A stretch of DNA of 64,000 bases from the NCBI RefSeq assembly GCF_030013595.1, contig NZ_CP122768.1; one strand, given 5' to 3'. The notes below the pieces were generated by a model. The model had not been told where the DNA came from and searched no databases. It worked only from the letters and a program-made list of their open reading frames with translations. Shown here in pieces: positions 3,835-4,950 of the stretch. The DNA comes from Escherichia coli (lineage in GTDB: Bacteria; Pseudomonadota; Gammaproteobacteria; Enterobacterales; Enterobacteriaceae). The stretch's first letter is position 1. Each line of letters opens with the position of its first letter. Made by a program: the position numbers and the translations under genes.

Positions 3835-3933
3835 ACAAACAATACAAACAATACAAACAATACAAACAATACAAACAATACAAACAATACAAACAATACA
3901 AACAATACAAACAATACAAACAATACAAACAAT
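3835..3933. repeat. perfect tandem repeat (ACAAACAAT) x 11
   Basis: eleven identical 9-bp units read directly in the sequence; preceded by an A/C-only tract from about 3801. Confidence 0.95.
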
Positions 3934-4010
3934 ACAGGCGCATCGATAATTAATTAACTTATCGGGTTACAAGGTAATATAACTTCAGTTAAAATTATTA
4001 ATCTCTTATT

Positions 4011-4040
4011 CGTGAAAAACAAAACCCGCCGAAGCGGGTT
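4011..4040 (-). terminator. intrinsic terminator of the hok transcript
   Basis: CCCGC-CGAA-GCGGG hairpin at 4025-4038 followed on the minus strand by TTTTGTTTTT. Confidence 0.6.
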
Positions 4041-4108
4041 AAGTGCGGGTGCTTTGAGGATGCCTGACACATCAGAGGTGGCGAGGGATTTCTCCCTCGC
4101 CTGGTCTC

Positions 4109-4264
4109 TTACTCCTCAGGTTCGTAAGCTGTGAAGACAGCGACCTCCGTCTGGCCGGTTCGGATTCGTACCTCGCAGAGGTCTTTCCTCGTTACCAGTG
4201 CCGTCACTATGACGGTTAAACAGATGACGATCAGGGCGATTAACATCGCCTTTTGCTGCTTCAT
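4109..4264 (-). CDS. hokD: Hok/Gef-family type I toxin (HokD/RelF-like), 51 aa
   Basis: hand translation gives MKQQKAMLIALIVICLTVIVTALVTRKDLCEVRIRTGQTEVAVFTAYEPEE; below the 60-aa cutoff of the ORF track. Confidence 0.85.
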   Translation of the reverse strand: MKQQKAMLIALIVICLTVIVTALVTRKDLCEVRIRTGQTEVAVFTAYEPEE

Positions 4265-4474
4265 AGCCTGCTTCTCCTTGACCTTTCGGTCCGTAAGAGG
4301 CTAATCTCTATGTGTCGCATAGATATGGCCTCAGATTAATGTTAAGCGTCTTGCAGGACGCGTAATGTTAACTGGGGCTTTTCTCTATCTGCCTTTTGGT
4401 GTTCATGCCTGAGGCAGATAGCCTCAAGCACCCGCAGCAATTCTACTTAACTCTCCTTTTCCCGCAAACCGTTT

Positions 4475-4558
4475 TTATCCCCATCGGCAAATCGAATACA
4501 CCACCAACGCCACCGCCATCGCAATTCCTACTGTAGTGAATGCCTCAGGCCAGGTCAT
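4475..4558 (-). CDS. small hydrophobic peptide, 27 aa (MTWPEAFTTVGIAMAVALVVYSICRWG)
   Basis: AGGAGG Shine-Dalgarno 7 nt upstream; ATG overlaps the stop of the upstream 131-aa gene (ATGA); predicted single membrane helix. Confidence 0.4.
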   Translation of the reverse strand: MTWPEAFTTVGIAMAVALVVYSICRWG

Positions 4559-4950
4559 CGATTCACCTCCTGCTCAATATTTTTAAGGTCATTTTCCGCA
4601 TACAGTATTGCTGTCCTGGCTGCTCGTAACCGGGCTTTGGCGTTTTTCTCTTCACGTTCAAGTTTTGCCACAGCTTCACGAAGAGCATCCCGCTTTGCAT
4701 AGAGTGATTTTATCTCAGACACTATGTTTTCACCGTTTCTCGCACGCTCGAGAACAAGCTCGAACGGATCTAAAGCCAATCCGCATCGGTTACAGGTAAT
4801 CGTACGATTCACTTCTGAAATTGTTGTACGGATATGCTGACAGCATTTTTGCTCGCCGCTTTTTCTGTCGGTTATCACAACGTTGAGGAGTCCTTCCTCC
4901 TCTGATTTTGGCTGTACCAGGGTGATAACATTGTCGACTTCATTTTTCAT
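4555..4950 (-). CDS. hypothetical protein, 131 aa, Cys-rich N-terminal half and coiled-coil C-terminus
   Basis: ORF translationally coupled to the DUF551 gene upstream (ATG overlaps its stop); CC-x-H…C-x2-C motif; heptad-like K/E/A-rich tail. Confidence 0.55.
   Translation of the reverse strand: MKNEVDNVITLVQPKSEEEGLLNVVITDRKSGEQKCCQHIRTTISEVNRTITCNRCGLALDPFELVLERARNGENIVSEIKSLYAKRDALREAVAKLEREEKNAKARLRAARTAILYAENDLKNIEQEVNR

Follow-up and report, generated by a model that had tools for sequence, protein, structure and literature searches.

A Probable Complete hok/mok/sok Locus of the hokW-sokW Kind in a Lambdoid Prophage of Escherichia coli

Introduction

Loci of the kind described here are already known. 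In phage 933W mokW, hokW and a sokW misc_RNA are annotated, and the counterpart in phage Sp5 (VT2-Sakai) was functionally characterised in 2021, hokW/mokW/sokW being established experimentally as a toxin-antitoxin system belonging to type I (Takada et al., PMC8621323). In Sp5, HokW is toxic, and sokW, a 71-nt RNA made from its own promoter and detected by northern blot, protects against it (PMC8621323). Mutation of the sokW −10 from TAACCTA to GAGCCGG (primers YO-421/422, legend of Fig. 1E) led to the loss of antitoxin activity, and the protection lost in the −10 mutant was partly restored by sokW in trans. RNase III and Hfq contribute to the system, the sokW RNA disappears after mitomycin C in a RecA-dependent manner, and hokW-sokW affects lysis and phage release (all PMC8621323).

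The Hok protein of plasmid R1 is 44% identical to HokW (PMC8621323). The closed, open and metastable states of hok mRNA are described by an alternative-structure model, and in R1 mok need be translated only as far as the hok initiation region (PMC9841398).

We analysed positions 4266–4430 of a 64,000-nt stretch of E. coli DNA (assembly GCF_030013595.1, contig NZ_CP122768.1), called the window below. An initial annotation had proposed a Sok antisense promoter and a hok mRNA stem in this segment. Very probably, this segment forms part of a type I toxin-antitoxin locus, a complete hok/mok/sok set of the hokW-sokW (hokD-type) kind borne by a lambdoid prophage. The window allele differs in detail from the allele studied in Sp5.

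Locus Organization and Genomic Setting

The first 17 kb or so of the window corresponded to the early region of a lambdoid prophage, which adjoins potC/potD. The prophage genes, all on the − strand, followed the order Q, RusA, DUF968, rem, hokD, nin-type genes, P, O-like, YdaT and Cro. The locus was situated in the early-right (nin) region and is prophage-borne, not a core chromosomal copy. The hok gene is co-directional with the early-right operon (cro-O-P-nin-Q) and sok is convergent with it. The elements recognised were as follows, listed in the direction of hok transcription.

4440–4467, − strand: putative hok promoter, read from the sequence (TTGCGG 4467–4462, 16-nt spacer, TAGAAT 4445–4440)
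4422–4433, − strand: tac element at the hok mRNA 5′ end, GGGUGCUUGAGG (start of the Rfam RF01794 match; pairs with fbi)
4385–4421, − strand: stable 5′ hairpin of the hok mRNA, arms 4421–4412 and 4394–4385 (fold; covariation)
4374–4382, − strand: ucb, or anti-SD, AAAAGCCCC (Rfam structure and full-length fold; model of PMC9841398)
4314–4383, + strand: predicted Sok antisense RNA of about 70 nt (aligned sok ends; fold)
4297–4332, − strand: Sok-target hairpin, outer stem GAGGC...GCCUC (fold; Rfam alignment)
4302–4307, + strand: sok promoter −10, TAATCT, after an 18-nt spacer (homologous to TAACCT(A) of Sp5 sokW)
4278–4283, + strand: sok promoter −35, TTGACC (sequence; same position as the −35 of sokW, R1 sok, sokC and sokB)
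4261–4320, − strand: mok-like leader ORF of 19 codons, MRHIEISLLRTERSRRSRL (sequence; its TGA overlaps the hok ATG as ATGA)
4109–4264, − strand: hok toxin gene, 51 aa (Pfam HOK_GEF)
4080–4101, − strand: 3′ UTR stem-loop GGCGAGGGA-GAAA-UCCCUCGCC (fold)
4047–4059, − strand: fbi element, CCUCAAAGCACCC, complementary to tac (minimum-free-energy fold of the 418-nt transcript)
4016–4040, − strand: intrinsic terminator of the hok mRNA (terminator scan: 7-bp stem, then a T run)

The hok ORF matched Pfam PF01848 (HOK_GEF) with E = 1.2e-23 and 82.9 bits, against a cutoff of 22, and its protein was identical to the K-12-like HokD (WP_000813254.1). In RefSeq only hokD is annotated at this locus and in its close relatives, with no mok, sok or ncRNA. 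Of 5426 complete E. coli genomes, 4727 contained matches to the locus, 481 nt in length, with at least 80% of it covered in 3904 of them, and up to 10 places matched in a single genome. A further 110 phage records also matched.

Several features were seen in or next to the locus. A 27-aa hydrophobic ORF, MTWPEAFTTVGIAMAVALVVYSICRWG (4475–4558, − strand), stops just short of the hok −35, and its ATG shares bases with the TGA of an upstream 131-aa ORF (4555–4950) that had no Pfam match. The start sequence of the 27-aa ORF recurs in a primer used to clone the Sp5 locus. An A-rich tract immediately downstream of the hok terminator contains a perfect tandem repeat (3835–3936) of the 9-nt unit ACAAACAAT, with 11.3 copies and 100% matches. 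The TAC codon of hok Tyr47 (around 4120–4127, − strand) stands in a UUACGAA context. A preprint describes A-to-I editing of the hokC, hokD and hokE mRNAs that affects the cysteine at position 46 (bioRxiv 10.1101/2025.08.07.668861). A Rfam match to Salmonella isrK (4019–4100, − strand; 28.1 bits, the gathering score being 50) covered the 3′ UTR stem-loop, fbi and the terminator, and was probably driven by the terminator. The ceN48, rsmX and CrcZ matches were well below their gathering scores. Since the isrK and rsmX matches both cover the terminator of the hok 3′ UTR, all four sub-threshold matches were treated as due to chance or to the terminator.

Comparison with Known Systems

The window locus and that of 933W were 92.4% identical at the DNA level. 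With the Stx2 phages 933W and Sp5, the window shares the lambdoid position, the set of elements, the place of the sok promoter and a Sok of 70–71 nt with the same hairpin. Apart from the promoter hexamers treated below, the differences concerned the target-loop allele (CGACA in the window, CUGAACA in the phages), the C-terminus of Hok (TAYEPEE and VDYESEK, respectively) and mok, which in the phages is an in-frame, N-extended Hok, whereas the window has an out-of-frame mok of 19 codons that terminates at the hok ATG. The in-frame arrangement was also found in hokC and in the R1-like plasmid. Among 158 IMG/VR copies, 27 had the 19-codon form of the window, 120 were in-frame and nine had a long +1 overlap resembling that of R1.

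The R1 system was represented by the copy on an R1-like IncFII plasmid; the mok-hok spacing of this copy is 1 nt off the numbering of PMC9841398, so it is not R1 itself. The hok/sok (parB) system of R1 resembles the window locus in tac/fbi, ucb, the coupling through mok and the location of the sok promoter over the hok SD region, and the mechanism is presumed to be the same. It differs in that the toxin is only distantly similar, the loop of the 5′ hairpin is longer, and the locus is carried by a plasmid and serves post-segregational killing.

In the hokD locus of K-12 (relF, Qin prophage), the 51-aa protein is identical to that of the window, and the CDS, 3′ UTR, fbi and terminator are nearly so. 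The match of K-12-type hokD is nevertheless limited to 4015–4278. Upstream comes relE (relBE-hokD), and leader, mok, tac and sok are all missing. The homology ends at about 4278, the first base of the sok −35, and the window has the intact form. The K-12 copy is therefore a 5′-truncated remnant of a locus of the window type. The same truncated form was present in 4 of 80 IMG/VR loci, and two others of the 80 showed another leaderless junction. The K-12 hokC/mokC/sokC locus (gef) shares with the window the TTGACC −35, the 18-nt spacer, the column of the sokC 5′ end and a homologous 5′ hairpin, but it is a core-chromosome locus with IS186 adjacent, its mokC is in frame with hokC and its −10 is cACTCT.

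The initial annotation had taken the intact-looking promoter as a sign of an active locus. Activity is plausible because all the canonical elements are intact, and because it is exactly at 4278 that the K-12 hokD copy is truncated. By analogy, the window allele would behave as its relatives in R1 and Sp5 do. It might instead be functionally silent despite its intact appearance, so that an intact promoter would be a poor guide to activity. This would recall the chromosomal hok loci of K-12, E. coli C and ECOR24, which, as cited in the same preprint, failed to mediate post-segregational killing when tested, the failure being given there for chromosomal hokA, hokB and hokC (bioRxiv 10.1101/2025.08.07.668861), and the mok of the window is indeed frame-shifted and limited to 19 codons, unlike the in-frame form of 933W. 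We consider a silent locus unlikely. The prophage homologue hokW-sokW is active, with effects on lysis and phage release, and the allele of the window ranks second in frequency among the 26 in IMG/VR. As R1 needs mok translation only as far as the hok start, a 19-codon mok is compatible with coupling.

The Probable Sok Promoter and the Predicted Sok RNA

The two hexamers given in the initial annotation, TTGACC at 4278–4283 of the + strand and a TAATCT-like −10 about 18 nt downstream, were verified by direct reading of the sequence. The −10 is TAATCT (4302–4307) and the spacer is exactly 18 nt. Their match to the consensus was weak, 5/6 for the −35 and 3/6 for the −10, and a scan for consensus promoters and terminators at default thresholds reported neither the sok promoter, nor the hok promoter, nor the Sok terminator. 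The sok promoter passed a relaxed rule (−35 with at least 5/6, spacer of 16–18, −10 with at least 3/6 including A2 and T6). Sites fulfilling this rule occurred in the window at about 0.46 per kilobase per strand, which corresponds to 0.076 expected in the 165-nt interval. Sequence alone is only suggestive for the sok promoter, and its support comes from homology.

The window was aligned with 933W, the R1-like plasmid, K-12 hokC and K-12 hokB. The sok promoter had the same position in every comparator, which supports the view that the hexamers are those of a Sok antisense promoter. The window has TTGACC-18-TAATCT, as compared to TTGCCT-17-TAACCT for sokW in 933W and Sp5. The comparison with R1 proposed in the initial annotation placed TTGCGC-17-TATCCT at the same site of the R1-like plasmid. 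In K-12, the corresponding sequences are TTGACC-18-ACTCTA for sokC (shifted by one, cACTCT) and TTGCCG-17-TAAGAT for sokB. The TAACCTA segment mutated in Sp5 is the exact alignment counterpart of TAATCTC in the window.

The initial annotation had named non-conservation of the hexamers in homologous loci as a ground for refuting the promoter; a census of 158 distinct IMG/VR copies with a full leader found their position kept in all 158. The form TTGCCT-17-TAACCT was present in 118 copies and that of the window in 33, the other seven being recombinants or one-base variants. Considered separately, the −35 was TTGCCT in 121 copies and TTGACC in 37, and the −10 corresponded to TAAYCT in 155.

This conservation is confounded by the constraints that act on the hok mRNA and on mok, on the opposite strand. 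The 3′ arm of the SD-proximal hairpin of hok, together with AA of the hok SD region, has the sok −35 as its complement, and this hairpin showed two compensatory pair changes with respect to 933W. Conservation of the −10 in spite of its being unpaired in the hok mRNA was given up as an argument, the segment being paired in most other alleles. The hexamers might then be a by-product of sense-strand constraints exerted by the SD-proximal hairpin, the mok codons and the target hairpin, in which case sok would be weak or dead and hok would be controlled by folding only. The exact complementarity between the −35 and a covarying hairpin arm would suit such an origin, as would the 3/6 match of the −10, the 18-nt spacer, the silence of the promoter scan and the expectation of about 0.08 such sites by chance in the interval. 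It is quite improbable all the same, given that the equally weak-looking promoter of Sp5 is functional, that 33 of the 158 copies carry the form of the window, whose −35 and spacer are common to K-12 sokC, and that the Sok hairpin and U tract downstream are intact. We retain a genuine sok promoter as the preferred reading.

The annotated 5′ ends of sokW, sokC and sokB aligned to a single column, at window position 4314, 7 nt after TAATCT. The annotated 3′ ends corresponded to window positions of about 4382 for sokW and about 4388 for sokC and sokB. In the predicted Sok RNA, a 13-nt single-stranded 5′ tail (4314–4326) would be followed by a long interrupted hairpin (4327–4379) and a CUUUUCU tract. 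The segment 4314–4383 folded with an energy of −29.3 kcal/mol (z = −4.9). An antisense Sok gene was recognised opposite the mok start by its promoter, placed by homology, its predicted single-stranded 5′ tail and its hairpin with a U tract.

Folding of the hok mRNA Leader

The Rfam model RF01794 matched over its full length at 4262–4433 on the − strand, with 108.3 bits for a gathering score of 59. In the three loci compared, those of the window, 933W and the R1-like plasmid (87 bits), the match was on the hok-sense strand and ended at the hok AUG. Though named "sok antitoxin", RF01794 models the hok leader rather than the Sok strand. The −10 of the putative hok promoter ends 7 nt upstream of the first matching position, 4433.

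When the 418-nt transcript was folded to its minimum free energy (−176.4 kcal/mol, z = −9.98), tac (4433–4422) paired with fbi (4059–4047). The mok SD, GAGG (4332–4329), was paired in this fold with the CCCC of ucb, so that the partner of ucb is the mok SD region in the full-length fold and tac in the Rfam (open) structure. The predicted Sok-target hairpin holds the mok SD, the mok AUG (4320–4318) and a 5-nt loop, CGACA, and its sequence complements that of the predicted Sok 5′ tail. By analogy with R1 (PMC9841398), the 4080–4101 stem-loop would likely be the terminal stem of the 3′-processed hok mRNA.

The 9-bp perfect stem of the initial annotation is real, but its span, given as 4384–4429, began 1 nt too far to the left and ended 8 nt too far to the right. 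It is formed by CTATCTGCC (4385–4393) with GGCAGATAG (4413–4421), and reaches 10 bp with an adjacent T-A pair. Its assignment to the hok mRNA stands; its assignment to the fold-back is only roughly right, as the true fold-back is the tac/fbi pairing. The hairpin lies immediately 3′ of tac, between tac and ucb, and in the folding model it would be a part of the switch and not the fold-back pairing itself. It is very hard to believe that the stem is the fold-back (fbi) structure, or else a + strand element such as a second Sok terminator: it does adjoin tac, just downstream of the Sok U tract, but the fold-back partner of tac is 360 nt away at 4047–4059, no T run follows the stem on the + strand, and the sok 3′ ends fall before the stem at 4385–4421 (sokW) or within its first 4 nt (sokC and sokB).

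The stable 5′ hairpin, folded as a 59-nt segment, had an energy of −23.5 kcal/mol (z = −3.67), and none of 200 shuffles was as stable. Across 21 distinct homologous sequences 97.3% of the cells could pair, as compared to 25–54% for slid controls. Three pairs had changed on both sides, the third from A-U to G-C, U-A or G-U. In a nascent transcript of 34–40 nt, tac was predicted to pair with 4414–4405 in an 11-bp hairpin of −19.6 kcal/mol (z = −5.2). This metastable hairpin (nt 3–29, 4431–4405) makes use of part of the 5′ arm of the 9-bp stem. Among the 21 variants 97.4% of its cells pair, but the covariation was not above that of column shuffles. The three pairing states predicted for the window match the closed, open and metastable states of the model.

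A Hypervariable Block at the Sok 5′ Tail

A 19-nt block at 4308–4326 was hypervariable. On the two strands it covers the Sok 5′ tail, the loop of the target hairpin and the surroundings of the mok AUG, and its flanks were almost invariant. The diversity of the transcribed region peaked there, with a pi of 0.284, where the third-codon positions of hok gave 0.030 and the Sok hairpin 0.027, in a sample partly selected for an identical Hok protein and a 20-nt exact match, a selection that lowers the diversity in some of the comparison regions. The 26 alleles of the block were counted in 166 IMG/VR copies. All of the 12 common alleles kept the hairpin, at −12.0 to −13.6 kcal/mol, with different loops. 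The target loop of the window, CGACA, is without a YUNR motif, and eight of the 12 commonest alleles have one in the loop or bordering it.

Avoidance of identical alleles among co-resident copies was unsupported in 16 isolate genomes: 6 of 22 within-genome pairs were identical, for 2.3 expected, and these six were confined to two genomes, each with three identical copies that may be duplicates of assembly.

Two tandem leaders preceding a single hok were observed once among 188 loci, in IMGVR_UViG_651053022_000007 (L164, 4500–4900; the same locus as L034). The proximal leader is the window allele. The distal one begins with a sok −35 of its own and has another of the common alleles, along with the hok promoter. 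This arrangement would amount to two sok genes of different specificity.

Discussion

We infer for the window locus the following mechanism, by analogy with its relatives in R1 and Sp5, for which it has been demonstrated (PMC9841398 and PMC8621323). A Sok RNA of about 70 nt would be transcribed on the + strand from TTGACC-18-TAATCT, and the hok mRNA would start near 4433 on the − strand. In the nascent transcript, tac would pair with the segment just downstream to form the metastable hairpin, and in the full-length mRNA the pairing of tac with fbi, at the 3′ end, would give the closed, untranslatable form. Trimming of the 3′ end would then allow tac to pair with ucb in the open form. There, the mok SD and AUG would be held in a hairpin attacked by the Sok 5′ tail. 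Since hok translation would require ribosomes that read mok as far as the hok start, the pairing of Sok would block the translation of the mok leader and hence that of hok, and the duplex of Sok and hok mRNA would then be degraded. Once Sok is lost, the stable hok mRNA would be translated and Hok would damage the inner membrane.

Two readings go beyond the published work. We advance them together and tentatively, as proposals more doubtful than probable. In the first, the 4308–4326 block may serve as a specificity cassette, diversifying much more quickly than the remainder of the locus. If so, many prophage hok/sok copies would coexist without cross-protection, or orphan sok copies would act as anti-addiction genes. 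The second reading starts from the convergence of sok with the early-right operon. Antiterminated read-through at induction could shut off Sok by occluding its promoter, or could titrate it. This hypothesis would account for the RecA-dependent disappearance of sokW in Sp5.

As a discovery the locus matters little, and its use is for annotation. Strand calls taken from RF01794 would be wrong, because this "sok" model matches the hok-sense leader. The window locus shows the form of the intact ancestor of the truncated K-12 hokD/relF, and the diversity of alleles at the Sok 5′ tail is possibly relevant to antitoxin specificity among co-resident prophages.
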